In this document: positions 1 to 39,494 of the stretch, one piece after another
Numbering within the stretch: position 1 is the first letter of the stretch
Layout: the number at the start of each line of letters is the position of its first letter
DNA from: an uncultured Candidatus Saccharibacteria bacterium
GTDB taxonomy: Bacteria; Patescibacteriota; Minisyncoccia; Minisyncoccales; CAYTKG01
Assembly (NCBI GenBank): GCA_964401285.1
Contig: CAYNXY010000001.1
Location: 3,342 to 67,341 of the forward strand
Direction of reading: 5' to 3'
DNA: 64,000 nt
Position numbers and translations under genes: made by a program
Notes under the pieces: model-generated
What the model was told of the DNA's origin: nothing
The model's database searches: none
What the model saw: only the letters and a program-made list of their open reading frames with translations

Positions 1-3000
1 CTCCAGTGGACTACTGCCTCTTCTGCGGAAAAGTTAAACGAGAACTCGTTCTCCACACTCTTTTGGTTTATGAAATCGGGAATCATTTTAGGAATAATTT
101 GTTCGGTGGCAGCACTAAGCAGGAGGAGAGGGATGGTTCCTGTTGTTTTTTCCTCGATGTGGATTTTTTCCCCTGTTTTTGCCTGGTGGGCAAGCAGACC
201 TCGGCAAGAAAAAACTAAACTTAGACGAAAAGATAAAATTAAACTTCGCCGTTTGGCGCGGAAGAATTGGAGATTTTTTGATGATCTCGTTGGAGCGGAA
301 ACCAACTTTTTACCTCTCGACACTTTCCAAAATACTCCGCAAAAGAAAATAGCGTGGAAAACATCTCCTACAAATATCGGACTCTATCTTCTTTCCGCTA
401 TTTCCGCCCATAATCTCGGATACATTTCCACTCTTAAATTCTTAAATCTTTTGGAAAAAACACTTTTTGCCCTGGAAAAGCTTCAAAAATACAAAGGGCA
501 CCTTTACAATTGGTACAATATTAAAAACCTCAAAATCCTGGCTCCTCATTATATATCAAGCGTTGATAGCGGGAACCTATGTGCTTCTTTTATTGTCGTT
601 AAAAACATGCTTGAAGAGCTCATGGAGTCCCCTTTCTCGACAAATAAAATACTACCCGGCTTGAAAGATGAGTTTCAACTTCTTAAAGAAAAAATTGAAA
701 AGATTGAAAACCGGAAAAAAACTTACAAAAAACATTTAGAGCGTTTGAGTTCATCAATCAACAAAACATCCGACTCTTCTTGGCAAGAATACTTAAGAAA
801 CGTAAAACAAGAAATTATTTCCTTTCGAAGTTTCTTAACCCGGGAAATGGAAACAGCTGATACAGAAGGGGCAAGGAAAATAAAAGAGATTTATTATTGG
901 CTGGAAAAATTAAGCTCCCATACGGATGATTTCTATTATGAAAGAAATGGTTTCACAAAAGACCCTAAAAAAGCAACAGAAAGCGCTGCAAGAAGATGTG
1001 AAAACCTCTCCCAAAGATTTGACAAACTCACAGAAGAAATGGACTTTAGCTTTTTATACAACCCGGATAAAAAGCTCTTTTCTTTAGGTTTCAGGGTAGA
1101 TAAAAACGAACTGGATAATATTTATTATAATTTTCTTGGCTCAGAATCACGCCTGGCTAGTTTTGTTGCTATAGCTAAAGGCGATCTCCCTGCCAAACAT
1201 TGGTTTGGGATGGAAAGAACCTTAACCAAACTGAAAAACAAAAAAGCAGTAATTTCCTGGGGAGGATCTCTTTACGAATACCTCCTCCCCAACCTATTTT
1301 TAAAAAATTATCCCGAAACTTTACTTCATGAAACAATCGAGGTAGCTGTTAAAAAACAAATCCAATACGGAGAAAGAAAAGGAATCCCCTGGGGGCTTTC
1401 CGAAAGCGCCTATAATGCCCAAAACAAGGAGGGTTTTTATCATTACAAGGCGTTCGGGGTGCCGGACTTGGGAGTTAAATTTTCTCTGGGCAAGGAACCA
1501 GTAGTAAGCCCTTATTCCACCATGCTTGCTCTCCCCCGCTTTCCTAAAAAAGCAATTAAAAATTTAAAAACACTTAAAAAGGAAGGGCTTGAAGGCGAGT
1601 ATGGTTTTTACGACGCAATAGATTACACTCCTCAAAGAATGCCTGCCGGGAAACGAGGGGTGGTTATCCCCACTTATTATGCCCACCATAAAGGTGCAAG
1701 CTTAATGGCGCTTACCGCTTCTCTTAATGACAATCCTTTTTCCAAGTATCTTTTCCGCGATTCACGTATAAAATCCGTAGAACATTTCTTGGAAGAAAAA
1801 ACTCCAAGGGAAACACCAACCCTTGAACTTCATAAGTTCAAAAAATCAAGAAAACCAAGAATAACGGAGGAAAGATTTGGGTTTTCCACCACCTATATCA
1901 CCGAACCATGTCAAGAAAACCCGAGTTCTTATTTTCTTTCCAACGGCAAATATCAAGTAATGATAGATGAGTCAGGAAGCGGATTTTCTAAATTCCAAGA
2001 TTTTTTCGTAACAAGATTCAGAAAAGACCCCACAAGAAGAGAATCAGGAACATTCTTTTATATTAAAGATCTGGACACGAAAGATATTTGGTCTTCTACT
2101 TTTCAGCCCACCAAAAAGCCACCTAAGAATTATAAAATACTTCAGCACGAAAACAAGGTGGAATTTACAAGAAAAGATGGAGGGATAGAAACCAGAACAG
2201 AAATAGTTGTAGCCCCCCGTGAAAATGCTGAAATAAGGAGGGTGACCCTAACAAACCAAAGCTCAAAAGAAAAAGAGTTAGAGATTACAAGTTACGGCAA
2301 GATAGTTATAAATGGAATGGGGCAGGACCTCACACACCCCGTATTTTCCGATATGCTTGTTTCTTCCGAGTTTCTCTCTGAAAAGAACGCTTTGCTTTTC
2401 TGCCGGCCGGAGGCTGACCAGGACACCCCTCTTTGGGCGACCCACATTATAACTGAACAAGAAGAACCGATTGAATTTTCTGCTGACCGAAAAAGTTTCA
2501 TTGGAAGGGGCAGAACACTTGAAAACCCAAAGGCCTTAGAGCAAAAACTCTCTGGTTCTTCTGGTTACACTCTTGACCCTATAATGAGTTTGAGGACTAC
2601 TGTTAAGCTTGCACCCGGGGAAAAGAAATCATTGGGGTTTACCACTGCTCTCTCTTTTCGTAAGGAAGAGGTTCTTTCTTTAGCAGATAAATATTCAAAA
2701 CTAAGCACTGTTGAGAGAACTATGCGGCTGGGAGAAAACTACGGGCAACTGGAGATGAGACAGCTTACCTTTTCTCCCGAGGAAAGCTTAATCTTCCAAA
2801 AACTTGCTTCTAAACTACTGTGGCCCGGGGAAAAATTAAGAAACACGGAAAAAATTAGAAAAAATAAAAAGAAAAAGGAAGACCTTTGGGGGTATTCCAT
2901 TTCCGGAGACCACCCCATTCTTCTCATCACAACTTCGAGCTTAAACGATTTGGATTACCTTCCTTTAATCCGCCAAACCATAAGAGCTCAGAAGTTCCTG

Positions 3001-5736
3001 CAAAGAAAAGGTTTTATATTTGACCTTGTTGTCTTAAATAAAGAAAGTGGGGGGTATAAAAAAGAACTGGAAGAAAGAATAGGGGCTTTAGGCGGAGACA
3101 AAATGTCAGGCGTATGGGGAGAAGAGCGAGGCGGTATTTTTATCCTAGGATCCGATTTTATACCGGAGGAAAACCAAAACCTTCTTGAAGCAATGGCCTC
3201 CGTCGTACTTGAGGGGAACAAGGGGTCCCTAAAAGAACAACTGGAACAAAAAGAAGAAGAGAGCAAAATTCCGCTTTTTTCTCCACATCAAAAGCAAATT
3301 GAGGCAAAAGTAGAATTAAAAGAACTAGTAAATACCGACGAACTAGCTTTTTACAACAACTTCGGCGGGTTCGACGAAGAAAAAGAAGAATACGTCATAA
3401 CACTGCGTCCAGACCAAAAAACTCCTGTTCCCTGGACAAACGTAATATCTAACCCCAATTTCGGCTTTGTTGTTTCCGAGTCGGGTTCTCAATTCACCTT
3501 TTGTGAAAACAGCAGGGATAACCGGCTCACACCCTGGTTTGGAGACCCCGTTCTGGATAATGCTGGCGAAGCGCTATTCGTGAAAGATGAAGAAACAGGA
3601 AAGAGCTGGTCCCCCCTAGCCTGGCCTAAAAGAGATAAAAACCCTTATCTTATTCGACACGGTAAAGGGTATGTGAAATTCAAACACAAATGTGAAGAAA
3701 TAAGTTCAGACCTTACGCTATTTGTCCCCCGCAGAGACCCGGTAAAAATTGTACGCTTTAAAGTTAAAAATACTTCTTCAAAAGAAAGAAAAGTTTCCAT
3801 CTATTATTTCTTGGAATGGGTGTTGGGAGAACTAAGAAGTAAAACTTGGCCCCACATCGTTACAGAAATTGACGAAAAAAGTAAAGCAATAATTGCCCTC
3901 AACCCGTTAAGTGAAAGTTTTTCGGAAAGAAAAGCTTTTCTTTGGGGAGAAAACCCGACAAGCTTAACGGGAGACAGAAAAGAAATTCTCGGCCCGGGAA
4001 GAGGTTGGAGCACCCCGGCAGGCCTGGACAAAGAAACTCTCTCAGGAAAAGTCGGGGCAGGGTTTGACCCAGGAGCGGGGGTTCAAAGACGCCTCAATCT
4101 AAAACCCGATGAGGAAAAAGAAATAGTGTTTCTTTTGGGAGAAGTAAAAAGCAAAAAAGAAATCCAAGCACTGATTGAGAAATACAAAAATCACGACAAT
4201 ATAGAAAACTCGCTGAAAGAAGTGAAGAGCTATTGGGAAAAAACTACCTCAACCCTAGAGGTTGAAACCCCGGATAAGGCATTGAACGTGTTGTCAAGCT
4301 GGCTTCCTTACCAAATATTAAGCTGCAGAGTGTGGGCTAGATCATCTTTTTACCAACCCGGAGGTGCTTACGGTTTCCGCGACCAGCTGCAAGACGCGAT
4401 GGGGCTTGGGATAAACCACCCTGAAATCCTTAAAAAACACATAATCAGAGCGGCAAAAAGACAATACAGAGACGGCGGGGTTCAACATTGGTGGAAACCA
4501 GTGAGCAATTTAGGCCTGAGAAGTTCTTACACTGACGATCCGCTTTGGCTGGTCTACATTGTCTCCTACTATGTTCAGCTCACAGGAGATTACGAGTTTC
4601 TAGATAGAAGTCTCCCATTTTTGGAAAGCACCAAAGAGGGCTACCCCGAAAGCGAAACAATGGAAACTGCCACGCTATCTTCCGATAAAGCAAGCTTATT
4701 TGAACATTGCATGAGAGCAATAGAAAAAACCTTTGACCTTGGAGCACACGGTCTGCCAAAAATGAAAGGGGGTGACTGGAATGACGGAATGAATAAAGTA
4801 GGAGTAGAAGGACAGGGAGAAAGTATTTGGCTGGCTTGGTTTGAAATAAAAGTGTTGGAAGAGTTCTCCGAGGCAGCAAAGAAAAAAGGAGAAAAAGAAG
4901 CTTGGAGAGAACTAAACTCCAAAATAAAGAAACTCAAAAAAGAAGTGGAAAGAACCGGTTGGGACGGAGAATGGTACAGACGAGCTTATTTTGACGATGG
5001 CACACCTTTGGGCTCAAAAGAAAACAGAGAATGTAAGATCACTCTTACCCCTCAGGCCTGGGCGTTTATCTCCGGCGGTAAAGATAAAAAGCGACTCGAA
5101 GCAGCTCAAGTTTCTTGCGAAAAGTACCTGGTAGATGAAAATGAAAAATTAATTAACCTGCTCTGGCCTCCTTTTAAAAACCCCGAGCGCGACCCCGGCT
5201 ACATTAAAAACTATCCACCAGGCGTTAGAGAAAATGGAGCTTGCTACCTGCACGCAGCAATGTTTTATATTTTAGGCCTCATCAATCAAAAGAAAAAAGA
5301 CAGAGCTTGGGAGCTTTTCAGCTGGTTCAACCCAATAAAAAGAAGTTCTACCTCGAAACAAGTTGAAAAATACAAAGTTGAACCCTACATCTTGCCCAGC
5401 GACATTTATGCTTCTCTATCTCCCGGAGCAGGAGGATGGAGTTGGTATACAGGCACCGCTGCTTGGGTCTGGAGAATAACAGCTGAGTTCATATTAGGTT
5501 TAAAGATACGAGGAGAATACTTTATGGTTGAACCCTGCCTACCTTCTTCTTGGCCGGGATACAAAATGACCCTCAGGCATGGTTCTGATACTTACGAGAT
5601 TACAGTTCAAAATTCGAAAGAAGAGGGCAAAGGAAAAAGAATAAAACTGGACAATAAAAAAATAGAAGGCGAAAGAATCGCCTTCCAAAACGACGGCAAA
5701 CGGCATAAAGTAGAAGTTTTCTTAAAAAAAGAGTAA
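1..5736 (+). CDS. Cyclic beta-1,2-glucan synthase (NdvB/ChvB/Cgs)-like giant protein with tandem GH94 glycoside-phosphorylase modules; 5'-partial. The ORF track starts at 70, but the frame is open to nt 1.
   Basis: The same frame as the 70..5736 ORF has no stop from nt 1, so the gene continues upstream of the window. Motifs match the NdvB post-glycosyltransferase region: WRFFDDLV...NFLPLDTFQ...TSPTNIGLYLLS and SESRLASFVAIAKGDLP. There are two GH94 N-terminal beta-sandwich signatures (GKYQVMIDESGSGFS; PWTNVISNPNFGFVVSESGSQFTFCENSRDNRLTPW). The GH94 catalytic (alpha/alpha)6 motif FYQPGGAYGFRDQLQDAMG is present. A TM helix lies at the start of the visible part. Confidence 0.7.
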   Translation, partial: LQWTTASSAEKLNENSFSTLFWFMKSGIILGIICSVAALSRRRGMVPVVFSSMWIFSPVFAWWASRPRQEKTKLRRKDKIKLRRLARKNWRFFDDLVGAETNFLPLDTFQNTPQKKIAWKTSPTNIGLYLLSAISAHNLGYISTLKFLNLLEKTLFALEKLQKYKGHLYNWYNIKNLKILAPHYISSVDSGNLCASFIVVKNMLEELMESPFSTNKILPGLKDEFQLLKEKIEKIENRKKTYKKHLERLSSSINKTSDSSWQEYLRNVKQEIISFRSFLTREMETADTEGARKIKEIYYWLEKLSSHTDDFYYERNGFTKDPKKATESAARRCENLSQRFDKLTEEMDFSFLYNPDKKLFSLGFRVDKNELDNIYYNFLGSESRLASFVAIAKGDLPAKHWFGMERTLTKLKNKKAVISWGGSLYEYLLPNLFLKNYPETLLHETIEVAVKKQIQYGERKGIPWGLSESAYNAQNKEGFYHYKAFGVPDLGVKFSLGKEPVVSPYSTMLALPRFPKKAIKNLKTLKKEGLEGEYGFYDAIDYTPQRMPAGKRGVVIPTYYAHHKGASLMALTASLNDNPFSKYLFRDSRIKSVEHFLEEKTPRETPTLELHKFKKSRKPRITEERFGFSTTYITEPCQENPSSYFLSNGKYQVMIDESGSGFSKFQDFFVTRFRKDPTRRESGTFFYIKDLDTKDIWSSTFQPTKKPPKNYKILQHENKVEFTRKDGGIETRTEIVVAPRENAEIRRVTLTNQSSKEKELEITSYGKIVINGMGQDLTHPVFSDMLVSSEFLSEKNALLFCRPEADQDTPLWATHIITEQEEPIEFSADRKSFIGRGRTLENPKALEQKLSGSSGYTLDPIMSLRTTVKLAPGEKKSLGFTTALSFRKEEVLSLADKYSKLSTVERTMRLGENYGQLEMRQLTFSPEESLIFQKLASKLLWPGEKLRNTEKIRKNKKKKEDLWGYSISGDHPILLITTSSLNDLDYLPLIRQTIRAQKFLQRKGFIFDLVVLNKESGGYKKELEERIGALGGDKMSGVWGEERGGIFILGSDFIPEENQNLLEAMASVVLEGNKGSLKEQLEQKEEESKIPLFSPHQKQIEAKVELKELVNTDELAFYNNFGGFDEEKEEYVITLRPDQKTPVPWTNVISNPNFGFVVSESGSQFTFCENSRDNRLTPWFGDPVLDNAGEALFVKDEETGKSWSPLAWPKRDKNPYLIRHGKGYVKFKHKCEEISSDLTLFVPRRDPVKIVRFKVKNTSSKERKVSIYYFLEWVLGELRSKTWPHIVTEIDEKSKAIIALNPLSESFSERKAFLWGENPTSLTGDRKEILGPGRGWSTPAGLDKETLSGKVGAGFDPGAGVQRRLNLKPDEEKEIVFLLGEVKSKKEIQALIEKYKNHDNIENSLKEVKSYWEKTTSTLEVETPDKALNVLSSWLPYQILSCRVWARSSFYQPGGAYGFRDQLQDAMGLGINHPEILKKHIIRAAKRQYRDGGVQHWWKPVSNLGLRSSYTDDPLWLVYIVSYYVQLTGDYEFLDRSLPFLESTKEGYPESETMETATLSSDKASLFEHCMRAIEKTFDLGAHGLPKMKGGDWNDGMNKVGVEGQGESIWLAWFEIKVLEEFSEAAKKKGEKEAWRELNSKIKKLKKEVERTGWDGEWYRRAYFDDGTPLGSKENRECKITLTPQAWAFISGGKDKKRLEAAQVSCEKYLVDENEKLINLLWPPFKNPERDPGYIKNYPPGVRENGACYLHAAMFYILGLINQKKKDRAWELFSWFNPIKRSSTSKQVEKYKVEPYILPSDIYASLSPGAGGWSWYTGTAAWVWRITAEFILGLKIRGEYFMVEPCLPSSWPGYKMTLRHGSDTYEITVQNSKEEGKGKRIKLDNKKIEGERIAFQNDGKRHKVEVFLKKE

Positions 5737-5737
5737 C

Positions 5738-7045
5738 TTAAAACTCCTTGAGCTTATCTGCCTCCTCATGCTCGCGCAGTTTTTTCAGGGCGCGAGCTGC
5801 AATCTGACGTATTCTTTCTCTTGTCACCCCGAATTCCTGGCCCACCTCCTCCAAGGTGTGCTTCACCCCGTCTTCCAGGCCAAAACGCATCTCAAGAATC
5901 TTTTGCTCGCGCGGGGTTAGATCTTTCATAAGGTCTGAGAGCCGCTCTTTTAAAAGAGCACGAGTTGCTTCCTGGAGAGGGGTTGTGCTTTCCGTATCCT
6001 CGATGAACTCTTGCAAAAGGGTGTCCTGGTCTTCTCCAACCGGTGTTTCAAGCGAGATAGTACCCTTTATTATCTTTCTTATTTTTCTTACCTTAGATAA
6101 GCTTAAGCCCATCTCGGCAGCCATCTCTTCGGGTAGAGGCTCTCTCCCTAACTGTTTTCTCAACCTTCTTTGTTCTTTTGTATATTTGGAAAGTGTTTCC
6201 ACCATATGAACAGGAATTCTTATGGTCCTCGAATAGTCAGCCAAGGCTCTGGTAATCGCCTGTCTTATCCACCAGGTAGCATAAGTTGAAAATTTGTAAC
6301 CCTTTTTCCAGTCAAACTTTTCAACTGCACGAAACAGGCCCCTGTTCCCTTCTTGAATAAGGTCTAAAAAGCTAAGATAGGGAGAACGACCAATATATCT
6401 TTTAGCAATGGAAACAACCAGCCTCAAGTTCGCTTGAATCATTTTCTTTCTGGCCGCTTCTTTTTCCGCCCTATCGCCATTATTTATTTTTTTTGCAAGT
6501 TCTACCTCTTCCTTGCGAGAAAGAAGCGGGGTGCGCCCGATTTCCTTAAGATACATCTGAACCGGGTCCACCTTTCTCCTCTTCTCAATCGGACCCTCTT
6601 CTTCTTCCATTTCTAAAAATCCTCTTTTTTCTTTTATTTCCACTCCTTCTTCAGCCAACCGGCTGTAAAGCTTCTCCAGGCCTTCAATGTCTTTTTCCAA
6701 ATAAGAAAAGGTATTCAAAATCTCCGCCTCGGTTACAAACCCCCTGGCCCTTCCTCTTTCCACGAAATCTTCCACTTTTTCTTTTCTAAAAACTTTAGAT
6801 TTGGGCATCGAACTACCCGGCAAAGTTAAATCCAGCTCTCCCAGCGCTTCTTTTATCTCCTGCACCGATTTTTCACCAATCCCTTCTTTCTCAAGAAGGG
6901 TTTCTTCTTTTCTTCTTAAAAGTCCGGCCACTGTTTTAATATTGTTGCCCCGCAAAGCATTTTCCGTCCGAGTGGAGAGGCCGAGCTCCGTTACTGTGAT
7001 TGACTTTTTTTCTTCCAAATTCTTTTTATTCATTGATATTTTCAA
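5738..7045 (-). CDS. rpoD: RNA polymerase sigma-70 factor RpoD with an extra N-terminal alpha-CTD-like helix-hairpin-helix domain
   Basis: Region 1.2/2 ([23 protein letters not shown]), region 2.4 ([12 protein letters not shown]) and region 4 ([15 protein letters not shown]...[19 protein letters not shown]) are present. It lies immediately downstream of dnaG, the classical dnaG-rpoD arrangement. Confidence 0.9.
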
Positions 7046-8789
7046 TTTGTTTTGAAAGTTTATTAAAGTTTTCTGTTAACAATTTAACTTTTGACTCATC
7101 CCCCATCCTTTCCGCTTCTTTCAATCTTTTCGAAAGTGCCTTGAGTTCTTCTTTTCTCCTGATGTTTTTAATAACAGCAATACATTTTTTAACTTCATCT
7201 TTAACATTTTCCACCTCACCCATAACCTCTTTTCTTAAAAGAGCCATTTGCACTTTTTGGAACAGAGCTTGAGAAAGTTCTTCTTCAAGCTTCTTCGGAT
7301 CAAGAGCCTCCTTTCTAAAAACGGTGAAAAGCTCAACTGCTTCCGGAGAAAAAAACTCCATATCTTCTTTTTTGATATACTCTGCTGCTTCCGGGTCTTG
7401 AATCAAAAAGTAAAGCAACTCATCCTCCATCATCTCTTCTTTACTTTTTTGTCTTTCTTGCCTGTCTTCGTCTCCCGATTCTACTTCTTGTTTAAAAGTG
7501 GGGGTCTCCTCTTTTATTTTTACTTTTTTAAGCTCCCTTTCTATACTTTCCTCGCTCACCTTAAGCCCTTCCGCTATCTTTTGAATCCAGTGGAACCGCA
7601 CTATCTCGTTGGGAACTCTTTTTATAACCGGAAGTAATGTTTTTGCTATCTTTTTCTTCTCTTGTGCTTTGTCCGGGTCAAACTTCTCAAAAGCGGTTTG
7701 AAAATAATACTCTAAAACACCCTTAGCTTCTTCCACTAACTCTTTCCATTTCCCCGGTTTTTCTTTAATCACGTCAGCCGGGTCATGATTCCCCGACATA
7801 AGAATCACCTCCGTTTCAAAACCTTTCTTTTGAGCAAGTGCAATACCTCTTCTCGTAGCCGCACTACCCGCGCTGTCTGCATCAAAAGAAAATTGAAGAC
7901 GATCTGTATATCTTTTAAGGATACGAAGTTGATAAGATGTCAGCGCCGTACCCGAAGAAGCAACAATGTTTTCAATCCCGACTTGGGAAGAAAGGATAAC
8001 ATCCGTATACCCTTCGGTTACAATACAAGCATCTTTTTCTCTCACCGCAACTTTGGCTTTATTAAGCCCATAAAGCACTTTGCTTTTATTGTAAAGAGGT
8101 GTGTTTGAAGTATTAACATACTTAGCCGTGCTCTCCCCCATTCTCTTAAAAACCCTACCGCCAAACCCGATTACTCGTCCGTGCAGGTCAAAAACAGGAA
8201 ACATAATCCTGCCCCTAAAACGATCGTAATAATTACCTTTTTTATTTAAAACGGAAAGCCCTGTTTTTCTTATCTCTTCCTTTGTAAAACCGCGGGAAGT
8301 TAAAAAACGAGACAAAGAACGCCATTTATCGGGAGAATAACCCAGCCGCCACTTGCGAATTGAATCCTTATTTATCCCTCTTTCTTCAATCAAATACTTG
8401 TTTGCAAGCTGACCAGCTTTACTTTTTTGGAGCTGCTTTTCAAAAAAACGGCTTGCTAAATCACAAATTTCATAAAGCCGTTTCTTCTTACTTCTTGCCT
8501 TGTGGCTAACTTTCTTTAACTCAACCCCGGCCTTCCGGGCCAAGATTTCAAGTGCTTCTCTAAATTCCACCCCTTCAATTTCTTTCACAAATCCGTACAC
8601 ATCCCCTCCTTTGTCACACCCGAAGCATTTCCAAATCTGCTTACTGGGAGAAACAAAAAGAGAAGGTTTTTTATCGGAATGAAAAGGACAACGAGCTCTA
8701 TAATTGGCTCCTGCTTTTTCCAGCTTGATATAATCCTTAATGACATCTACTATGTCCAATCTGTTTTTAATTTCCTCAACCTGGTCCAT
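7026..8789 (-). CDS. dnaG: DNA primase DnaG
   Basis: Zinc-ribbon [25 protein letters not shown] and [16 protein letters not shown]. It overlaps the rpoD start by 20 nt. Confidence 0.9.
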
Positions 8790-8901
8790 TCTTTGTTTTT
8801 AGTTTAACATCAACCCCCGATTTGTCAAAAAAGAAAAGATTTCAATAAATAAACTTGCCTCCAAAACGTGAGGCAGCTTAAAAATAATTTGTACTGACAG
8901 C

Positions 8902-9447
8902 TTACTCGGGGATTCTCGTAATGATATCTATCTTGTGATGAGGAATAAAATAGGTCTTTCCTTCACCGTTTTTTAAGATAGTTCTTCTGAGATTAATATC
9001 TGTCACAGTCCCTTCTTCCCCACCAACAGAAACCTTGTCTCCTACCTTGTACTGGCCGGAAAAAAGTATAAAAATTCCTGAAACATAATCTTCTATCGCC
9101 TTTTTTGAAGCTCTGCCAATCGCAAACGCCACCAGCGCACCACCGGCAAGAAGCGCCTGGATATTAATTCCAAATTCAGGGAGAATAGTCAAAAAAGCAA
9201 ACCCCCACACCAAAGTAGTAAAAATACTGGAAAGAACCCCGTAAAGGGTTTCTTTTCGTTTTTCGTTCGTCTTTGCCACCCTATTTCTTAATTCGAATGT
9301 CTTCTCCAGCAAACGCCTTAATAACCTCTCCCCCAGTTTTTGCGCAATTAAAGAAGCAATAAGAATGCTTACTACTTTTACTCCTGAAGTAAGAATCCAG
9401 CTCGTTAATACCTCGCAATATTTTTTACTCAATAAAATATCAAACAT
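8902..9447 (-). CDS. Small mechanosensitive-channel (MscS)-like membrane protein
   Basis: Two TM helices followed by an MscS beta-domain-like motif GQYKVGDKVSVGGEEGTVTDINLRRTILKNGEGKTYFIPHHKI. Confidence 0.5.
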   Translation of the reverse strand: MFDILLSKKYCEVLTSWILTSGVKVVSILIASLIAQKLGERLLRRLLEKTFELRNRVAKTNEKRKETLYGVLSSIFTTLVWGFAFLTILPEFGINIQALLAGGALVAFAIGRASKKAIEDYVSGIFILFSGQYKVGDKVSVGGEEGTVTDINLRRTILKNGEGKTYFIPHHKIDIITRIPE

Positions 9448-12299: not shown

Positions 12300-13148
12300 T
12301 TAGCTAAAATTTTTAATCAAGTCGCTTACAAACTTGAAATCTCCGTCTCCTTCCAGCACAATGTCAAATCTTTCTTGGTACCTTTTCCTCAACTCATCCT
12401 CGTCAAAGTTTAAAAATCCAATCGTCAATAGATGTTTATGGGGGAAGCCCTCAGCCATTGCCAGATCATCCAAAGCGTCCCCTAAAAGAATAACGTTTTT
12501 TCTTTTTTTTATTGCCCGACGGGCCTCAGGGTTTTTCTTAAGAGAAGTTTCATCTTTATTAAGAGAATGGATAACAGAGCCGCGGATAGAAACCGCCTTC
12601 CCCTCTTCGTCCCAATTGAACCTATTTATCAAATAATAAATATTTGGATAATCTCTCCCCTCTTTTTTAAAGAAAAGCGGGATCGCTTCTCCGCATCCAC
12701 TTGCAGAAAGTATCACTAACGGAATATTTTTTTCATTAAGAAAATCCAAAAATTTGAGAACTCCCTTCCTGAACTCAACATTTCCGTTTTCCACAATGTC
12801 TTTTATGTCCTTCTTAGACAACCCTGATTTAATCAAAAGCTCGTTATGAGATTCCCACCAATTCTGCATTTCTTTTTTCTTTTTCGGGAGAGGGATCTTC
12901 GGATCTATCTCAATGGGGTGGAATTTATCAAATAAAGCATGAGCTTTTTCTGCATAGCCGTCAGTTAAATATTCTCCGTTTCTTAATATAGAAATAAGAG
13001 AAGGGGTTTTAACCCCGTCTCTTACCCCATAAGTAAGAGTTCTGTCAAAATCGGAGAGGATATAAAGATTTTTGTAAGTAGCACTTGCAATTTCAGATTT
13101 TAAATACTCTACTTTTTCAGGGTTAGAAATCAAAATCTTCATTTTCAA
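12300..13148 (-). CDS. HAD-superfamily pyrimidine 5'-nucleotidase of the eukaryote-type cN-III/UMPH-1 family
   Basis: HAD motif I DFDRTLT. It is strongly collinear with cytosolic 5'-nucleotidase III (IEIDP; WWESHNELLIKSGLSKKDIKDIV; PLVILSASGCGEAI; NVILLGDALDDLAMAEG). Confidence 0.7.
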   Translation of the reverse strand: MKMKILISNPEKVEYLKSEIASATYKNLYILSDFDRTLTYGVRDGVKTPSLISILRNGEYLTDGYAEKAHALFDKFHPIEIDPKIPLPKKKKEMQNWWESHNELLIKSGLSKKDIKDIVENGNVEFRKGVLKFLDFLNEKNIPLVILSASGCGEAIPLFFKKEGRDYPNIYYLINRFNWDEEGKAVSIRGSVIHSLNKDETSLKKNPEARRAIKKRKNVILLGDALDDLAMAEGFPHKHLLTIGFLNFDEDELRKRYQERFDIVLEGDGDFKFVSDLIKNFS

Positions 13149-28770: not shown

Positions 28771-31700
28771 TTACCCCTCATTTTTTTGGAACCCTGTACC
28801 TGCCGGGACTAACTTTCCTACAATTACGTTTTCTTTCAGGCCGCGTAAAGGATCTTTCTGGTTCCGGAGGGCCGCTTCAATGAGCACCTTGGAGGTTCGC
28901 TGGAAAGATGCAGCAGAAAGAAAACTGTCCGCACTGAGAGAAACTTTGGAAATACCAAGCAGTAGCCGTTCAGCCTCCGCCTCTTTCCCTCCAGAATCCT
29001 TAACTTTTCTGTTTTCTTCTAAAAACCTATCCCGAGTAACAGTCTCGCCGGGAAGAAAAGGAGTATCCCCCGGAGTAGTCACCTTCACCCGGGAAAACAT
29101 TCTATTGATAATAACCTCGAAGTTCTTATCATGGATTTTAACTCCTTGAGAAACATATATTCTTTGCAGTTCGGAAAGGAAATAGCGCTGAGTATACTTT
29201 TTACCGCGCAGTCGAAAAAGCTCATTCAAATCAATGCTTCCTTCACAAAGACGCTGTCCTTTTTCTACTTCATCGCCTTTTTTAACCAATATTGGCTGGC
29301 TTTGTTTAATCTTATACTCTTTAATATCGGGTTTGGTTGCCTTTTTCTTGGAAGTGGGCTTTGGTCTTATCTTCACAACATCGTTTTTAACAGCAACCAC
29401 TTTCCCGAATACTTTGGAAACAACTGCTTTTCCTTTCGGTTTTCTTATTTCAAAAAGCTCTTCAGCGCGCGGCAGACCACGGGTGATGTCCGCCTCGCCT
29501 GCAACCCCGCCTGTGTGGAATGTCCTCATCGTAAGCTGAGTCCCCGGCTCTCCAATACTTTGAGCAGCCATTATACCAACCGCCTGACCCACATCAACCA
29601 ATTTGTTATAACCCAAATCCCAACCATAACACTTCCGGCAAACCCCCCATAAACTCTTACACGTAAGAGGTGAGCGGATTTTAACTTTCTCTATCCCTGC
29701 CTCCTCCATTTTATTTGCTTTTTTCCAACCTATCATTTCACCCTTTTTAACAATTACCTTGCCGTTCTCTCCTTTAACCTCTTCTAAAGAAATACGACCG
29801 GCAACCTTCTGACCCCAATCCTGGCCTAAATCCTCAGCGTCTTTGAAGTAAACATCCACCCCCTCCTCATCACCGCAATCTTCCTCCACTACCATTACGT
29901 CATGAGCTGCGTCCGCTAAACGCCGGGTAAGATATCCTGCCTCAGCAGTACCTAATGCCTTGTCCGAAATACCTTTCCGAGAGCCGTGCGTGGAGATGAA
30001 GTACTCAAGCACACTAAGCCCTTCTTTGAAACTACTTTTGACCGGCAACTCTACAACACGTCCGGAGGGGTCAACCATAAGCCCCCTCATTCCTCCAATC
30101 TGAATCGGCTGACTCCAAGAACCTCTACAACCGGAGTCGGCCATAATGAAAACAGGGTCATGCTGGGAAAGCTTTTGCGGAACAATCTCCTCCACTTTGT
30201 TTTTCGCTTCAGTCCAGGCCTTGATGGTTCTTTCGCTTTTTTCCTCTTCTGAAAGTAAACCCTTTTCATAAAGCCCTCTTACTTCATCCGTCTCTTTTTC
30301 TGCTTCTTCTAAAATCTCCTGCTTTTCTTCAAGAATAATAAAATCATCCACACCGAGAGAGATACCGCTTTTGGTGGCCCATAAAAACCCAATATCTTTG
30401 ATGCGGCTCACATATTCTGCCGCTTTTCGAGAACCATACTCTTCTATAATTCTCCAGGTTATATCTTCCAACCGACCGGAATCAAGCCGTTCATTATAAT
30501 AAGGAAAACGGTCCGGTAAAATATCATTAAACATAATCCTTCCTACTGAAGTTTCAGTAAGCTTATCCTTCTTTGACTCCTTCACTCCTCTCACTTTTAT
30601 TTTCGCCTGGACATGAACCAATCCCCTCTCAAAAGCAGCCAGGGCTTCACGCGGGCTGGAAAAGGTTTTCCCTTCACCGGAAACTCCTTCTCTCAGAGTG
30701 GTAAGCCAATAGGAACCCATAATCATATCCTGAGAAGGGTTGATAATTGGTTTCCCGTGAGCCGGCTTGAGTAGATTCAAACTAGAAAGCATTATCTCTT
30801 TTGCTTCTTTTTGTGCTTCCTCGGAAAGCGGGAGGTGCATCGCCATCTGGTCACCATCAAAGTCAGCATTGTAAGCAGGGCAGACAAGAGGCGGTATCTG
30901 AATTGCCTTTCCTTCTATAAGGGTTGGTTCAAAGGCCTGGATAGAAAGCCGGTGCAGAGTGGGAGCTCTGTTCAAAAGAACATATTGTCCCTCCACTACA
31001 TCTTCCAAGGCAGCCCAAACCTCATCCGTTTTTTGGTCAATCATCTCTTTTGCGCTGCGTACATTGTAGGCCTCTTCTTTTTCTAAAAGCTCTTTGATTA
31101 CAAACGGTTTAAAAACTTCAAGGGCCATCTCCTTAGGAATCCCCGCCTTATGAAGGGGCAGATCTGGGCCGACAACAATTACCGCCCGGCCTGAATAATC
31201 AACTCTTTTTCCTAAAAGATTCCTTCTGAATCGACCCTTTTTACCCTTAAGCATATCGGCTAAACTTTTAAGCGGTCTTCTCCCGCCGGCAGCTGGGCGA
31301 GTAACTGTGCTGGAGCGCATACCATTGTCCACCAAAGCATCAACCGCTTCCTGAAGCATTCGTTTTTCATTCCGGACAATAACTTCCGGAGCTGAAATCT
31401 CAAGAAGGTATTTAAGCCGGTTGTTGCGGTTTATCACCCGCCGGTAAAGATCATTAAGATCAGAAGAAGCGTATCTCCCTCCATCCAACTGGACCATCGG
31501 TCTGAGCCCGGGAGGGAGAACAGGTAAAACCTTAAAAAACATCCATTCCGGACGCACGTCAGCTCTTTCCAGCCCTTCAAAAAACTTTAAACGGCGCAGA
31601 ACTTTTTTTCTCCTCGAGGAAGGTGCCTCTTCGTATTCATGACGGAGTTTCTCAATCTCTTCTTCAACATCAATGCTTTCAAATATTTCATAGAGAGCCT

Positions 31701-32361
31701 CCGCTCCTGTTTTTGCTTCAAAAACTTCTCCGTATTTCAAACTAAGACGCCTGTATTCAATCTCAGAGATAACATTGTGTCTTTTTATCATTGAAAGCTG
31801 ATCAACCGCCTTACTCCGGGCAAGACGTAGTTCCCGCAAAGCATTTTTAAGCTTTTCCTCGTCCTCTATTTCACTTTTCTTTTGCTTCACTTCGTTTTTG
31901 TACTCCTCATCTATTTCCTCCAACACCCTTTCCTTCCCTTCGTCCGATACGGAGGTGATTATATAAGAAACAAAATAAACAACGTTAGAAAGGTCACGCC
32001 GGGAAACACCAAGCACCATTCCCATTCTTGACGGGATGCCGCGTAAAAACCAAATATGAGCTACCGGCGCTGCCAAATCAATATGGCCCATCCTCTCCCT
32101 TCTTACTTTACTGCTTGTCACCTCCACCCCGCACCTGTCACATACGATTCCTTTGTACTGACGGCCTCTGTATTTTCCGCAATAGCATTGGTAATCCTTA
32201 GTCGGACCAAATATTTTTTCGCAGAACAAACCGTCTTTTTCCGGCTTGAGAGTGCGGTAGTTTATAGTTTCCGGCTCCAACACCTCCCCGTGAGACCAGG
32301 AAAAGATTTCCTCAGGAGAGGCAAGCTTGATACGAATACTTTCAAAGTCTTTTATTTCCAT
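28771..32361 (-). CDS. rpoC: DNA-directed RNA polymerase subunit beta'
   Basis: Zn-finger CDRCGVEV, the [14 protein letters not shown] catalytic motif and 1196 aa. Confidence 0.95.
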
Positions 32362-32375
32362 AAAAATATAAGAAT

Positions 32376-35300
32376 TTAATCTTCCTCGATTATTATGTTG
32401 AGTCCCAATGACTTCATTTCGTTTACTAAAAGTGTGAAAGAAGCAGGTATGGTCGGTGTCTTGATCTTTTTCCCCTGAAGAATGGATTTATAGGCCTGAG
32501 CACGACCCACAACATCGTCTGATTTAATGGTTAACATCTCCTGCAAGCTATAAGCAGCGCCATACCCTTCCAAAGACCAAACCTCCATCTCACCAAATCG
32601 CTGTCCTCCAAATTGAGCTTTCCCACCCAAGGGCTGCTGGGTGATAAGAGAATAAGGCCCAATTGACCTCATGTGCAGCTTGTCTTCAGCCATGTGGTCG
32701 AGTTTTAACATATACATATATCCCACCGCCACCTTGTCGTAAAACGGTTCTCCTGTCCGACCGTCATAGAGTTTCATTTTCCCATCTTCCGGGAGATCAG
32801 CCTTTTTAAGTTCTTCCTTAATCTCAGTCGTTGTCGCCCCGGAAAACGAAGGGCTCAAAGCCCGATATCCGAGTTTAGAGGCGGCGAAACCCAAATGCGC
32901 CTCCAAAACCTGACCGATGTTCATTCTCTTAATAATCCCTGTAGGGTTGAGAATAACATCAATCGGGGTCCCGTCCTCCAAAAAAGGCATATCCTCTTCG
33001 GGTAAAATTTTAGTAATAACACCCTTGTTCCCGTGTCTGTTAGCAAGTTTATCACCTACTGTTAATTTCCTGATTTGGGCCACCTCGACGTCAATCTGCT
33101 TAATAACACCAGCATCAAGACGGTGCCCCTTTTCCCGGGAAAATGTCTTAATATCCATCACCGTCCCCCTCTCTCCGTGTTTAAGAGTAAGCGAGGTATT
33201 CTTCACCTGTTTTGCTTTTTCACCAAAAATGGCCTTCAAAAGACGTTCTTCGGCTGTGAGAGTTTCTTTCTCCCGCGGGGAAACCTTGCCCACCAAAATA
33301 TCATTGGAGTCCACCCTGGAACCAATTCTTATTACCCCCTCTTCATCAAGATTGGAAAGTTTCTCCTTGCTCACATTGGGGATATCGTATGTAGTTTGCT
33401 CCGGCCCCACTTTAGTGTCTCTCACCTGACAAGAAAAACTTCTAACCCTTATTGAACTGAGATCGTCGTCTTTTAAAAGGCGTTCGGAAACAAGAATGGC
33501 ATCCTCGTAATTAGCTCCACCCCAGGACATGATGGCAACCAGCATATTCTTTCCTATTGAGACCTTGCCGTCTTTTATGGCTCCTCCCTCAGCCAAAACT
33601 TCTCCTTTTTCGACCTCCTGTCCTTTTTCCACAACTGGCTTTTGATGAAAACAAGAGTTTTTATTGGTCTGAGCAAAAGTTCTTAACGGATAATTCTTTT
33701 CTACTTTTTTGCCCTTAGCACCTTCAACTTCCAGCTTGACATGTTCTCCGTCAACCTCTATTACTTTACCTTTCTTTCCAGCTCTGATTTGAAGCCCGGA
33801 ATCGCGGGCCACTCTTTCTTCCAACCCACTCAAAACAAGAGGAACATCGGGCTGGATCAAAGGAAGCGACTGTCTCTGCATGTTGGAGCCCATAAGAGCC
33901 CTGTTGGCGTCATTATTTTGCTGGAAAGGAACTGATGCGGGAGCAACAGATAATATCTGCTCCGGGGAAACATCTACGAAGTCAAGCTCCTCTCTATCTG
34001 CAATACCCGGCTCTCCATTGATCCGTGCCTCTACTTCTTTTTCTAAAATTTTTCCTTTTTTATTGGTTTCTATGAGCCCGGAGCCGATAATCTTTTCTTC
34101 TTCTTCAAAAGCATTAAGATAAACAATTTCGTCGGTAACACGCCCGTTTTCAACACGAAAGTAAGGGGTTTCTATAAAACCAAGCTCATTTACACGGGCA
34201 TAAAGAGAAAGATGCACAATAAGACCGACATTTTGTCCTTCGGGTGTTTGGATAGGACAAACCCGGCCGTAATGAGACGGTTGCACGTCTCTTACCTCAA
34301 AACCAGCTCTTTCACTGGTCAATCCCTGCGGCCCCTTGGCTGTCAATTCTCTTTTGTGTTCAATCTCAGCCACCGGATTCTCGTTGTCCATAAACTGGCT
34401 CATTTGGCCGGTAGCAAAAAAGGATTGCACGCGGGCTTCATAAACTCGCGGGTTTATGATGTCAGAAGCTCTAATGTCAGTAATATCACGGGAAGCCATT
34501 CTATCCTTGGCAACTCTTTCCAATCTTCTCATCCCCACTCGCAGCGAGTTAAGAAGAAGTTCCGTGAAAACACGCACTCTTCTGTTCCCCAAGTGGTCAA
34601 TCTTGTCCGGTTTAGCCCCCGGGGTGTTGTTGAGACGAATAATTTCCTCCGTAACAGCAAAAACATCCTCGGGCTTTAAAGCCCTGTCTTCTCTTTCTAT
34701 TTTTTCAATTAAGTTGTCTCCTTTGGGAGCTGTTTTAGGAAGACGCTGCCATATTTTCCAACGGCCCACATCACCAAAGTCATAACGTTTGGGATTAAAA
34801 AACATGTCTTCCACAAACTCTTGAGCCACCTCTACCGTTCCTCTTTCTCCGGGCCTTAAGCGGCTGTAGATTTCAAGAAAGGCCTCTTTTTTGTTCCCTG
34901 TAGGGTCTTTCTTCAATGTTTTTTCAATATAATCCTCCTCTCCCTGGCTTATAACTTCCTTGTAGTATTCCTTAATCTCTTCCTCCTTCCCCATACCCAA
35001 AGCCCGCAGCAAGGTAGTAACCGGGACATTGCGCCTTCTATTTATTTTCACCGCAAGAGAACCACTCCAGTGAGTCAAGAACCGAAGCCAGGCGCCTCGA
35101 TCCGGGATTATTTTGGCTCCAAAAACCTGCTTACCCCTCACTTTCCTTGCTGTAAAAAATACGCCCGGAGAGCGTATCAATTGAGAAATAGCAACCCTTT
35201 CCACGCCTTCAATAATAAAAGTTCCCCTCTCTGTAAGAAGGGGGAAGTTAGCCAAACGAACATCCTGTTTCCTTTCCTTTCCTGTTTTAAGGTTGACTAG

Positions 35301-35564
35301 TTTGGTTTTTATCTTAAGAGGAGCTTCGTAGGAAGCGTTATTCTGCCGCGCCTCTTCCCTGCTCTTGTATTTGGGTTCATCCAAATAATAATCAAGGATG
35401 TGAAGCTCCAGCTTTTTGCCGGTGTAGTCCTTTATTGGTGAAAACTCTTGGAAAAGAGCACCCATGTCCTGCTCCCAAAACTTTTCCCAACTCCTTTTTT
35501 GTAGAGTCAAAAGGTTCCCTACTGGCAAATTATATTTGCTTTTAGAAAAATCTTTAATTCTCAT
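32376..35564 (-). CDS. rpoB: DNA-directed RNA polymerase subunit beta
   Basis: Rif region, [15 protein letters not shown], 1062 aa. It lies directly upstream of rpoC with a 14-nt gap. Confidence 0.95.
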
Positions 35565-35716: not shown

Positions 35717-38098
35717 TCAACCCTCTTCTTGCTCCTCAGATAACGCCACGATGGTTTTCATCACTACGTCAGGATTAAGAGAAATAGAATCAATCCCCTC
35801 TTTCACTAGAAACCGGGCGAATTCGGGGAAATCACTCGGCGCCTGCCCGCAGATGCCCGAATATTTTCCTCTTTTTTTACATTCCTGCACCGCCCTTGCC
35901 ACCATTTTTTTTACTGCCTCGTTTCTCTCGTCCGCTTTCTCGGCCAGTTTGGTATTATCCCTGTCTATCCCCAGCGTCAACTGCGTCAAATCATTGGACC
36001 CGATGGAATAACCGTCAAATGTCTCTAAAAAACGAGCTGCCGACTCCACATTGGAAGGGATTTCACACATCAAATAAACATTCAACTCATTTTCACCCCG
36101 TTTCAAACCAAAACCTGCCATAAGTTCCAAAACCTCTCTCCCCTCTTCCACCGTACGACAAAAAGGAATCATTACCGATATATTCTTTAACCCGAAAACA
36201 TCACGAGCCCTTTTAATCGCCTCACATTCCATTTCAAAAGCGGGTTGAAAACTTTCATCAAGATAGCGTGCAGCACCCCTAAACCCCAACATGGGGTTGG
36301 ATTCCTGGTCTTCAAAAAGCTCTCCACCTATCAAGTTTTCATACTCATTAGTTTTGAAATCGGAAAAACGAACAATCACCTCGCGCGGGTAAAAGGCGGC
36401 TCCAATCTGAGCCATTCCTTCAGCCAGTTCTTTAACAAAATATTCTTTCTTGTCCTTATGCTCTACGGTTAGCTCTTTTATTTTTTCTTTTACTTCCTGG
36501 TCCTCAAGTTCTTCGTAATGGTAAAGCGCCAAGGGGTGAACCCTTATCTTTTCTGCGATTATAAACTCCTCGCGGGCCAACCCTACCCCGCTTACAGGCA
36601 GAAAAGAGGTGTGGAAAGCAACCTCGGGGGCCCCGATATTAACCATAATTTTTGTCTCAAGCTCTGGAATTTTTTCCAAATTATACTCTTCCACTTCGTA
36701 AGAAACCTCTCCTTTAAAAATCCGACCGGAAAGCCCCTGAGTGCAATCCACCGTTACTTCGTCCCCCGTTTTAAGCATCTCTGTCCCTTTTCTCGTCCCC
36801 ACAATGCAGGGAACACCCAGTTCTCTTGAAACAATTGCCGCATGGCATGTTTTGCTGCCTTCATTCGTAATGATAGCCGAAGCCATTCTCATCACCGGTA
36901 CCCAGTCGGGGTCCGTCATCTCCGTTACCAAAACCTCCCCTTTCTTAAACTGAGAAATCTTGGAAACGTCAGAAATAACATGCACCTTACCCTGTCCAAT
37001 TTTGTTGCCGATGGCAATTCCTTCTAAAATCGGGTCTTCGCTGGTTTGAAGGTGGTATTCCTTGTAGGACCTTCCCTTTTTGGGGGCGTGAACGGTTTCC
37101 GGTCTTGACTGAACGATGAAAAGCTTCCCTGTTTCTCCATCCTTCGCCCATTCCACGTCCTGCGGACGGCCGTAACGCTCTTCAATAGCCATCCCCCAGC
37201 GCGCTAAGGTTAAGGCCTCTTCGTCGGTTAATGAAAACTCTCTTTCTTTCTCCCCCGACACCCCCACTTCTTTCAATCCGCCTTTTTTAGCATAAACAAG
37301 CTTTTTGTCTTTGCGACCCAAATCTTTACGAATAATACTTTTATACCCTTCTTCCAATGTGGGTTTAAAAACATAAAACTCGTCCGCCGTTATCTTCCCC
37401 TTGACAATCATTTCTCCAACCCCCCAGATGGAATTAATAAGAACCACATTGCTAAACCCCGTTTCCGTATCTATCGTGAACATCACCCCGGAAGAAGCAA
37501 GATCCGAACGAACCATTTTTTGCACACCGATAGAAAGGGCAAACTCCAAGTGGTCAATGCCTTTTTCTTCTCTGTAAGCTATTACCCTGTCTCCAAAAGA
37601 AGAAGCAAGACATTCTTTAAGAGCTTTCAAAAGCTCTTTTTTGCCCGAAACATTTAAAAACGTCTCAAACTGGCCGGCAAAAGAATCCTCGGGAGCATCC
37701 TCAGCCACCCCGGAGGAGCGAACAGCAACACTGACTTCTTTTTTCCCGTATCTTTCACTCAGCTCTTCATAATATTCTCCCACCTGCTCTTTTAATTCTT
37801 CCGGAAACTTTGCTTTACTTATAAGACGGCGGGCTTTCTTGCCGACGATCTGCAAACTTTTTATGCTGTCCGGGTTAAAATCTTTAAAAACTTTTTCCAA
37901 CTTCGGAGCAAGCTCGTTTTCTTTTATAAAAAACCAGTATGCTTTGGTGGTTAAGGCAAATCCTCCCGGAACGGAGACCCCCTTACTGGAAAGAGCGGCA
38001 ATCATTTCCCCTAAAGAAGCGTTCTTACCCCCCACAAGAGGAATGTCTTTTTTATCAACCTCGCCAAATTTTAAAACGTATTTATCTTTCTTACTCAT
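35717..38098 (-). CDS. ppsA: Phosphoenolpyruvate synthase (pyruvate, water dikinase)
   Basis: 793 aa with an N-terminal PPDK_N nucleotide-binding domain, a phospho-His domain (GSKTCHAAIVSRELGVPCIVG) and a C-terminal PEP-utilising TIM barrel. Confidence 0.85.
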   Translation of the reverse strand: MSKKDKYVLKFGEVDKKDIPLVGGKNASLGEMIAALSSKGVSVPGGFALTTKAYWFFIKENELAPKLEKVFKDFNPDSIKSLQIVGKKARRLISKAKFPEELKEQVGEYYEELSERYGKKEVSVAVRSSGVAEDAPEDSFAGQFETFLNVSGKKELLKALKECLASSFGDRVIAYREEKGIDHLEFALSIGVQKMVRSDLASSGVMFTIDTETGFSNVVLINSIWGVGEMIVKGKITADEFYVFKPTLEEGYKSIIRKDLGRKDKKLVYAKKGGLKEVGVSGEKEREFSLTDEEALTLARWGMAIEERYGRPQDVEWAKDGETGKLFIVQSRPETVHAPKKGRSYKEYHLQTSEDPILEGIAIGNKIGQGKVHVISDVSKISQFKKGEVLVTEMTDPDWVPVMRMASAIITNEGSKTCHAAIVSRELGVPCIVGTRKGTEMLKTGDEVTVDCTQGLSGRIFKGEVSYEVEEYNLEKIPELETKIMVNIGAPEVAFHTSFLPVSGVGLAREEFIIAEKIRVHPLALYHYEELEDQEVKEKIKELTVEHKDKKEYFVKELAEGMAQIGAAFYPREVIVRFSDFKTNEYENLIGGELFEDQESNPMLGFRGAARYLDESFQPAFEMECEAIKRARDVFGLKNISVMIPFCRTVEEGREVLELMAGFGLKRGENELNVYLMCEIPSNVESAARFLETFDGYSIGSNDLTQLTLGIDRDNTKLAEKADERNEAVKKMVARAVQECKKRGKYSGICGQAPSDFPEFARFLVKEGIDSISLNPDVVMKTIVALSEEQEEG

Positions 38099-39434: not shown

Positions 39435-39440
39435 CCCCCT

Positions 39441-39465
39441 CTGTGCAATACCTGGTATTGCACAG
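39441..39465. repeat. Dispersed palindromic element, copy 2 (CTGTGCAATACCTGGTATTGCACAG), followed by a tandem GCACAGTTA duplication
   Basis: 12-bp perfect arms around a single central T. It lies 7 nt upstream of the ACD-alpha start and 30 nt downstream of ACD-beta. Confidence 0.8.
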
Positions 39466-39494
39466 TTATGCACAGTTACACGCAGGTTAAAAAG

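Follow-up and report, generated by a model that had tools for sequence, protein, structure and literature searches.

A recurrent fusion of the RNA polymerase alpha C-terminal domain to the N-terminus of a primary sigma factor in candidate phyla radiation bacteria

Background

Bacterial RNA polymerase reads promoters with two of its parts, the C-terminal domain of the alpha subunit (alpha-CTD) and the sigma factor, which normally belong to different subunits. In this study, we describe an rpoD/sigA-type primary sigma factor gene in which both parts are encoded by one continuous open reading frame (ORF). The gene (5738..7045, minus strand) lies in a stretch of 64,000 nucleotides (nt) from an uncultured Candidatus Saccharibacteria bacterium (GenBank assembly GCA_964401285.1, contig CAYNXY010000001.1, positions 3,342 to 67,341 of the forward strand); this whole stretch is referred to as the window. 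The window protein is a complete short-form SigA (regions 1.1, 1.2, 2, 3 and 4) preceded by about 80 extra N-terminal residues with a genuine alpha-CTD, and the fusion is real, conserved, selected and recurrent. The parts, namely, an alpha-CTD and a group 1 sigma factor, are textbook material, and their combination is new as far as we found.

The closest described systems are the alpha-CTD of RpoA (PF03118) and the group 1 sigma factors RpoD/SigA of the Firmicutes-type short form. The window domain shares with the RpoA domain its family and its fold, which comprises two helix-hairpin-helix (HhH) motifs in about 60 residues. In RpoA, however, this domain is C-terminal, behind the alpha N-terminal domain (alpha-NTD) and a long flexible linker, whereas the window copy stands at the sigma N-terminus; the sigma copy would be present once per holoenzyme, besides the two copies of alpha if these are kept, and its DNA-contact residues are relaxed in part of the fusions. 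Like short-form RpoD/SigA, the window protein aligns end to end with the NCBIfam RpoD model PRK09210 (residues 84-435) and is encoded in a dnaG-rpoD operon, but its region 1.1 is preceded by an additional folded domain of about 80 residues.

N-terminal extensions of SigA also occur in other lineages. Actinobacterial SigA/HrdB proteins have such extensions (PMC11888270), and sister SigA proteins of the candidate phyla radiation (CPR) carry Lys/Arg-rich tails, for which no published description was found. The CPR tails, which from their composition are plausibly DNA-binding, resemble the window extension in their site N-terminal to region 1.1 and in their lineage-specific variability. Both the CPR tails and the actinobacterial extensions are low-complexity or disordered, whereas the window extension is folded and was taken over from a different subunit of RNA polymerase.

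The alpha-CTD module is also found outside RpoA in metagenome proteins. A profile search of 1.84 billion representatives returned tandem arrays of 3-12 alpha-CTD-like (PF03118) copies (P0121, P0124, P0126, P0127 and P0131) and alpha-CTD-like domains together with Sigma70_r4 (P0130, P0145, P0151 and P0179). These proteins resemble the window protein in that the module stands outside RpoA and is in some cases combined with a sigma-type DNA-binding domain, but they are without regions 1.1, 1.2, 2 and 3 and are not RpoD orthologues. P0130 additionally has a HARE-HTH domain, and P0145 begins with a signal-peptide-like segment.

Full-text literature searches returned no description of an alpha-CTD–sigma fusion, and, as far as we can tell, the architecture is visible in the precomputed Pfam annotations of public proteins yet has passed unremarked. 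Loss of the alpha-CTD in Parcubacteria has been stated (PMC8321222, citing PMC4508563); in a word search of the main text of PMC4508563, the terms 'polymerase', 'rpoA' and 'CTD' were absent. The CTD is kept in many RpoA proteins that bear the label of Patescibacteria or of one of its candidate lineages.

Results

Identity of the N-terminal domain

An earlier note on this DNA had claimed that the N-terminus of the sigma-70 protein is an alpha-CTD-like HhH domain, had aligned residues of about 15-75 with the CTD of RpoA, and had named a Pfam profile search of the N-terminus as a check. Residues are numbered here from the TTG codon at 7045 on the minus strand, so bases 6800-7045 correspond to sigma residues 1-82. 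Residues 8-69 matched RNA_pol_A_CTD (PF03118) with 55.5 bits, well above the gathering score of 23.8 (E 4.6e-15; profile positions 5-66 of 67), and the N-terminal 102 amino acids (aa) by themselves scored 58.4 bits. A generic HhH family was rejected as an alternative assignment, with HHH_5 and RAD51D_N falling below the Pfam cut-offs. A phmmer search with residues 1-84 against all PDB sequences yielded 47 matches, and all 47 were RpoA (alpha subunits or isolated alpha-CTDs); the best match was B. subtilis 3ihq_B (1.7e-7), and E. coli alpha residues 257-314 aligned to query residues 18-75.

Structure prediction gave the same answer. The AlphaFold2 (AF2) model of residues 1-163 has a predicted local distance difference test score (pLDDT) of 90-94 across the alpha-CTD, with helices at residues 18-21, 25-33, 39-43, 47-51 and 58-70. 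Foldseek against the PDB found RNA polymerase alpha subunits in all 50 matches listed, with a root-mean-square deviation (rmsd) of 0.7-0.9 Å over 60-66 columns and target-normalised template modelling (TM) scores of 0.86-0.94 against the alpha-CTD chains of E. coli and B. subtilis. A core of 60 residues aligns without gaps to the alpha-CTDs of E. coli, B. subtilis and T. thermophilus, with 35% identity to that of E. coli, and the five E. coli DNA-contact residues (the '265 determinant') are kept in the window protein (R265 as R26, N268 as N29, G296 as G57, K298 as K59 and S299 as S60). The Pfam, PDB sequence and fold matches therefore place the alpha-CTD assignment far beyond chance, and both the domain identity and the alignment put forward in the earlier note are borne out.

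Domain order of the sigma factor

Translation from TTG 7045 gives a protein of 435 aa, and the ATG at 7033 used in public gene calls gives 431 aa (P0001). The alpha-CTD occupies residues 8-76 (6818..7024, minus strand, as are all features of this gene); its folded core spans residues of about 14-76, and a short Lys-rich N-terminal arm lies ahead of the core. The sigma protein has no alpha-NTD (PF01000/PF01193) in Pfam, and so the domain departs from the position held by the CTD in the RpoA family. A short linker follows at residues 77-86 (6788..6817), delimited by alignment to the starts of non-fusion sigma factors and including Met80 (codon 6806-6808).

All sigma regions were recovered above the Pfam cut-offs behind this linker. 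Region 1.1, which marks out group 1 sigmas, covers residues 87-145 (6611..6787; PF03979, 33.4 bits against a cut-off of 22.5) and is separated from region 1.2 by an acidic disordered linker at residues 146-159 (6569..6610; AF2 pLDDT below 50 at residues 142-156/160 in both models). Region 1.2 (residues 160-193, 6467..6568; PF00140, 61.7 bits), region 2 (residues 202-273, 6227..6442; PF04542, 73.8 bits), region 3 (residues 283-357, 5975..6199; PF04539, 84.6 bits) and region 4 (residues 373-425, 5771..5929; PF04545, 69.5 bits) follow in order. Positions 9-368 of the 370 positions of PRK09210 align to sigma residues 84-435. The top NCBIfam matches are RpoD equivalogs whose scores lie under the equivalog cut-offs (NF004208, 436.5 against 555; NF006666, 429 against 572; TIGR02393, 338 against 354); these low scores are attributed to the divergence of the phylum and are not read as a sign of another sigma group.

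The earlier note had further held that the alpha-CTD takes the place of region 1.1, and this part of its description did not survive. In addition to the PF03979 and PRK09210 matches, residues 84-143 align to the N-terminal region 1.1 of the PDB SigA chains 7l7b_F, 8x6f_E and 7ckq_F, and replacement is excluded by these three lines of evidence. The alpha-CTD is therefore an addition of about 80 residues before a complete SigA. Region 1.1 is likewise kept behind the alpha-CTD in 18 of 18 fusions, with linkers that differ among the groups defined below: the linker of group A is about 10 residues long and conserved (PKSKVF), and those of groups B and C and of P0012 are low-complexity and 25-45 aa long, acidic in B and basic in C.

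Recurrence and selection

The fusion is not confined to one assembly, a possibility that the earlier note had raised against its own proposal. An identical 431-aa protein with dnaG upstream is present in two independent Sequence Read Archive assemblies (SRR31818007 and SRR14492187), and a 90%-identical orthologue (P0002) is present in the NCBI assembly GCA_964501525.1. Fusion sigmas of group C were found on 8 contigs, one of them a Joint Genome Institute contig of 605,647 bp, and those of group B on 18 contigs from many samples. A chimeric assembly was ruled out on the grounds that the same fusion occurs in many independent assemblies and samples.

Comparison of the window gene with its orthologue in GCA_964501525.1 gave proportions of nonsynonymous differences (pN) of 0.095 in the alpha-CTD, 0.139 in region 1.1 and 0.043 in regions 1.2-4, and synonymous differences (pS) were saturated at 0.75-0.85 (0.75 in the alpha-CTD). 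The low pN against a saturated pS indicates that purifying selection acts on the alpha-CTD no less strongly than on region 1.1.

Distribution among related sigma factors

The alpha-CTD is present in 18 of the 119 closest sigma homologues, the remaining 101 being non-fusion proteins; the named close homologues are from Patescibacteria, Nealsonbacteria, Paceibacterota and Minisyncoccales. The fusions fall into group A (the window protein and P0002-P0012), group B (P0052, P0078 and P0391, labelled Minisyncoccales, with locus L003 labelled as a Saccharibacteria metagenome-assembled genome) and group C (P0030, P0033 and P0392). In a neighbour-joining tree of the shared sigma body with 100 bootstraps, A, B and C were recovered 89, 100 and 99 times, respectively, and all fusions together 0 times. 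In all 100 bootstraps, group A clustered with the non-fusion sigmas P0013, P0014 and P0018 and apart from B and C. The three groups are thus not monophyletic, and the architecture has either been gained repeatedly or been gained early and lost many times; a tree of the 60-residue alpha-CTD is too short to choose between the two.

A homologue search with residues 9-87 alone gave no matches, no candidate having three 5-residue words in common with the query, and it carries no weight on the spread of the domain. Larger collections were also searched. A contig scan of genomes with a single region 1.1 pattern found 4 loci, one of them a fusion (L003). A profile of the alpha-CTD plus region 1.1 run against 5.8 billion proteins returned fragments, sigmas without alpha-CTD and RpoA but no full-length fusions, and is unusable for counting. 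The same profile against the 1.84 billion representatives gave no fusion sigmas among the 150 matches listed, which are dominated by the tandem alpha-CTD arrays; this absence probably reflects the 50% clustering, at which non-fusion sigmas would represent the fusions.

Origin and junction of the fusion

The alpha-CTD core is at most 62-64% identical to genuine RpoA CTDs, some of them labelled Patescibacteria, and nests among them. In the search of 5.8 billion proteins, identities to RpoA CTDs were 60-65%, several of these being labelled as Patescibacteria lineages. Sigma-borne domains are as similar to CPR-type RpoA CTDs as to the sigma-borne copies of other groups, and an IKTV(A/G)GL signature is common to both. 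In view of this greatest similarity to CPR-type RpoA CTDs, the sigma-borne domain was most likely derived from a copy of an rpoA.

A scan of metagenome contigs with the alpha-CTD signature gave 55 loci. In 50 of them the alpha-CTD stands right behind an RpoA N-terminal domain, and the remaining 5 begin at the alpha-CTD, so that the upstream part is not visible. Sigma regions beside the alpha-CTD were seen in 0 of the 55 loci; only 175 stretches in the whole metagenome collection matched the pattern, and the scan therefore says nothing on the rarity of the fusion.

The junction can be placed by comparison with non-fusion relatives. P0013, P0014 and P0022 start with MPR(Y/K/P)KKVF, aligned with window Met80 (alignment A1). 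In the nearest of them, P0014 (locus L007), the MPRKKKVF start aligns with Met80-PKSKVF of the window protein, and the genes are in the same order of mechanosensitive (MS)-channel gene, dnaG and rpoD. The junction therefore corresponds to the ancestral start codon of rpoD. Members of group A have M, I, L or P at the Met80 position, and an internal start is thus not conserved. In RpoA the CTD ends at the protein C-terminus, and in the simplest history the fusion would have arisen when a copy of the 3' end of rpoA was inserted between dnaG and rpoD, with loss of its stop codon then allowing read-through into rpoD.

N-terminal tails of non-fusion homologues

Tails of more than 20 aa (up to 98 aa) precede region 1.1 in 77 of the 101 non-fusion homologues. 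Lysine and arginine together make up a mean fraction of 0.60 of these tails, and aspartate and glutamate 0.03; an AT-hook-like [RKG]G[RK]P motif occurs in 11 of the 77. Examples are P0075, P0117, P0058, P0086, P0071, P0097, P0088 and P0081 (alignment A3), and many of the tailed homologues are labelled Patescibacteria. A short Lys-rich N-terminal arm is found in all fusion proteins.

Genomic context

The primase gene dnaG (7026..8789, minus strand; from the ORF list) is directly upstream of the sigma gene. The dnaG-rpoD operon context was present in all related loci examined, and the primase–sigma order was seen with Pfam primase domains in L001/L002, L008-L010, L011, L067-L069 and the non-fusion L007. 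At all loci checked, dnaG runs into the beginning of the sigma gene (by 8 nt in groups A and B, in the window with the ATG at 7033 as the sigma start, by 11 nt in group C and by 41 nt in L007), which suggests translational coupling of primase and sigma. A small MS-channel gene precedes dnaG and rpoD in groups A and C as well as in the closest non-fusion lineage (L001/L002, L007, L008-L010 and window positions 7026-9447); in group B (L067/L068) it is found further upstream, and the roughly 5.5 kb that separate it from dnaG contain other genes.

The window has a GC content of 41.7% and contains rpoB (32376-35564) and rpoC (28771-32361), in addition to genes for FtsZ, RecA and FtsK. Neither rpoA nor a second alpha-CTD-like sequence is present in the 64 kb, nor is any rRNA, and on the long contigs of groups B and C no rpoA was found up to a distance of 10 kb from the sigma gene.

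Several other ORFs of the window are unusual. The ORF at 70-5736 (plus strand) encodes 1888 aa in which a GH94 catalytic domain and a glucoamylase-like domain are combined with two GH94 supersandwich domains; the product is similar to cyclic beta-1,2-glucan synthases or glycan phosphorylases and unusually large for a small-genome bacterium, and the gene is convergent with the sigma gene, with one base between the stop codons. The ORF at 12300-13148 (minus strand) matches UMPH-1 (pyrimidine 5'-nucleotidase, PF05822; 200 bits), a mostly eukaryotic family that is odd in this window. Unusual central-metabolism ORFs are a cupin-type glucose-6-phosphate isomerase (PF06560; 18193-18858, plus strand), a PF10143-type cofactor-independent phosphoglycerate mutase (44988-46214, minus strand), a two-gene pair of coenzyme A (CoA) ligase and ATP-grasp type, and a phosphoenolpyruvate (PEP)-utilising enzyme, the last two drawing on 38091-40115 and 35717-38098 (both minus strand). 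From their domains, the pair is read as a putative split ADP-forming acetyl-CoA synthetase, and the PEP-utilising enzyme as a probable pyruvate phosphate dikinase or PEP synthase type. We take these enzymes to be archaeal-type variants, presumably typical of a fermentative CPR-type lifestyle. The gene content and the named close homologues of the sigma both fit a bacterium with a small genome, probably of the CPR (Patescibacteria).

Discussion

The best explanation of these results, to which we give a probability of about 0.5, is that the window protein is a SigA whose rpoA-derived alpha-CTD acts as a sigma-borne add-on that binds DNA in the minor groove. This reading is favoured because the DNA-contact residues are kept in the window protein, basic tails stand at the same site in related sigmas, and the alpha-CTD is a promiscuous module. 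Under it, the sigma-borne domain would be an extra, tethered and largely sequence-tolerant DNA-binding module with a preference for the minor groove of AT-rich DNA, thereby adding promoter or DNA affinity to the holoenzyme and amounting to a third alpha-CTD. Most sister sigmas have Lys/Arg-rich tails, sometimes AT-hook-like, at the identical position, and the alpha-CTD would be their folded equivalent. The module might act on the upstream part of the promoter, or close to the downstream duplex, the place of action of region 1.1. The earlier note had suggested that the module would bind UP elements, contact activators and perhaps make up for a small set of transcription factors.

A wider form of this reading is tentative and, in our judgement, doubtful as a whole. 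It would make the N-terminus of the housekeeping sigma in CPR/Patescibacteria a general attachment site for minor-groove add-ons, either polybasic AT-hook-like tails or an alpha-CTD captured at least twice independently from rpoA, with the sigma-borne alpha-CTD reading an AT-rich promoter element. If this were true, UP-like promoter strength would come from sigma itself in organisms that have very few activators.

Several observations weigh against a minor-groove add-on. Of 14 non-redundant fusion proteins, 10 retain the R265 equivalent and 9 the K298 equivalent, compared with 20 of 20 and 19 of 20 CPR RpoA proteins, respectively; P0004 and P0009 are without both equivalents, and in group C the two positions are taken by K and A. 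In known holoenzymes, region 1.1 sits in the downstream DNA channel until it is displaced on open-complex formation, and is far from the position of the UP element. The alpha-CTD is next to region 1.1 and away from the sites of alpha's own CTDs, and a classical UP-element role is therefore not a given. The parallel with the polybasic tails is positional, not mechanistic. The linkers of groups B and C, one acidic and the other basic, are very unlike each other. In group A, the short conserved linker, together with an AF2 junction pLDDT of 85-89 and a predicted TM score (pTM) of 0.66 (for the 163-aa N-terminal fragment, from a shallow alignment of 12 sequences), hints at a two-domain unit of the alpha-CTD with region 1.1; in the model, this junction fits a role related to region 1.1 as well as it fits a free DNA-binding arm.

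In another reading, the sigma-borne alpha-CTD would be mainly a platform for protein docking, offering regulators a handle only on the holoenzyme with this sigma. Activators, and regulators such as Spx, classically act on the alpha-CTD, and solved complexes of alpha-CTD with CAP, Spx, AfsR, RpaA and ToxR/TcpP are among the fold and sequence matches; relaxation of DNA-contact residues in several fusions while the fold is conserved also fits a role other than DNA binding. However, the surface that corresponds to the E. coli 287 determinant varies from one fusion protein to another, all five DNA-contact residues are intact in the window protein, and no transcription-factor family was matched by the window ORFs scanned with Pfam; we consider docking as the main role unlikely.

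The hints from the group A junction bear on a different proposal, in which the alpha-CTD and region 1.1 work as one unit in DNA-channel gating, sigma autoinhibition, sigma release, open-complex kinetics or capture of the downstream duplex during loading, with no upstream element being read. Besides the conserved linker and the confidently modelled junction of group A, the constant presence of region 1.1 behind the alpha-CTD agrees with it. The long low-complexity linkers of groups B and C and of P0012 speak against a fixed two-domain unit as a general rule, and the shallow alignment behind the AF2 model also tells against it; the odds of this proposal appear low.

The last alternative, an artefact or mis-annotation, in which the assembly is chimeric or the true sigma starts at Met80 behind a decaying remnant, is very improbable, and Met80 as the only start was rejected: the start Met of the nearest non-fusion sigmas falls exactly on Met80 in the alignment, and a short isoform from the internal ATG is possible for the window gene, but the fusion recurs across independent assemblies and samples, the upstream frame is open in 18 of 18 homologues, most group A members have I, L or P in place of Met80, the upstream domain is under the purifying selection described above, and the end of dnaG lies 5-8 nt past the upstream sigma start and therefore leaves no room for a separate gene.

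Conclusions

A domain with the fold of the RpoA alpha-CTD precedes a complete SigA in the window. Should the rpoA of the fusion genomes prove to be without its own CTD, this would be a relocation of a domain between subunits, which would be considerably more striking than an additional copy. As it stands, a selected and recurrent fusion at the site of the polybasic tails of sister sigmas would represent a so far undescribed tuning of promoter or DNA affinity in reduced, uncultivated CPR bacteria.

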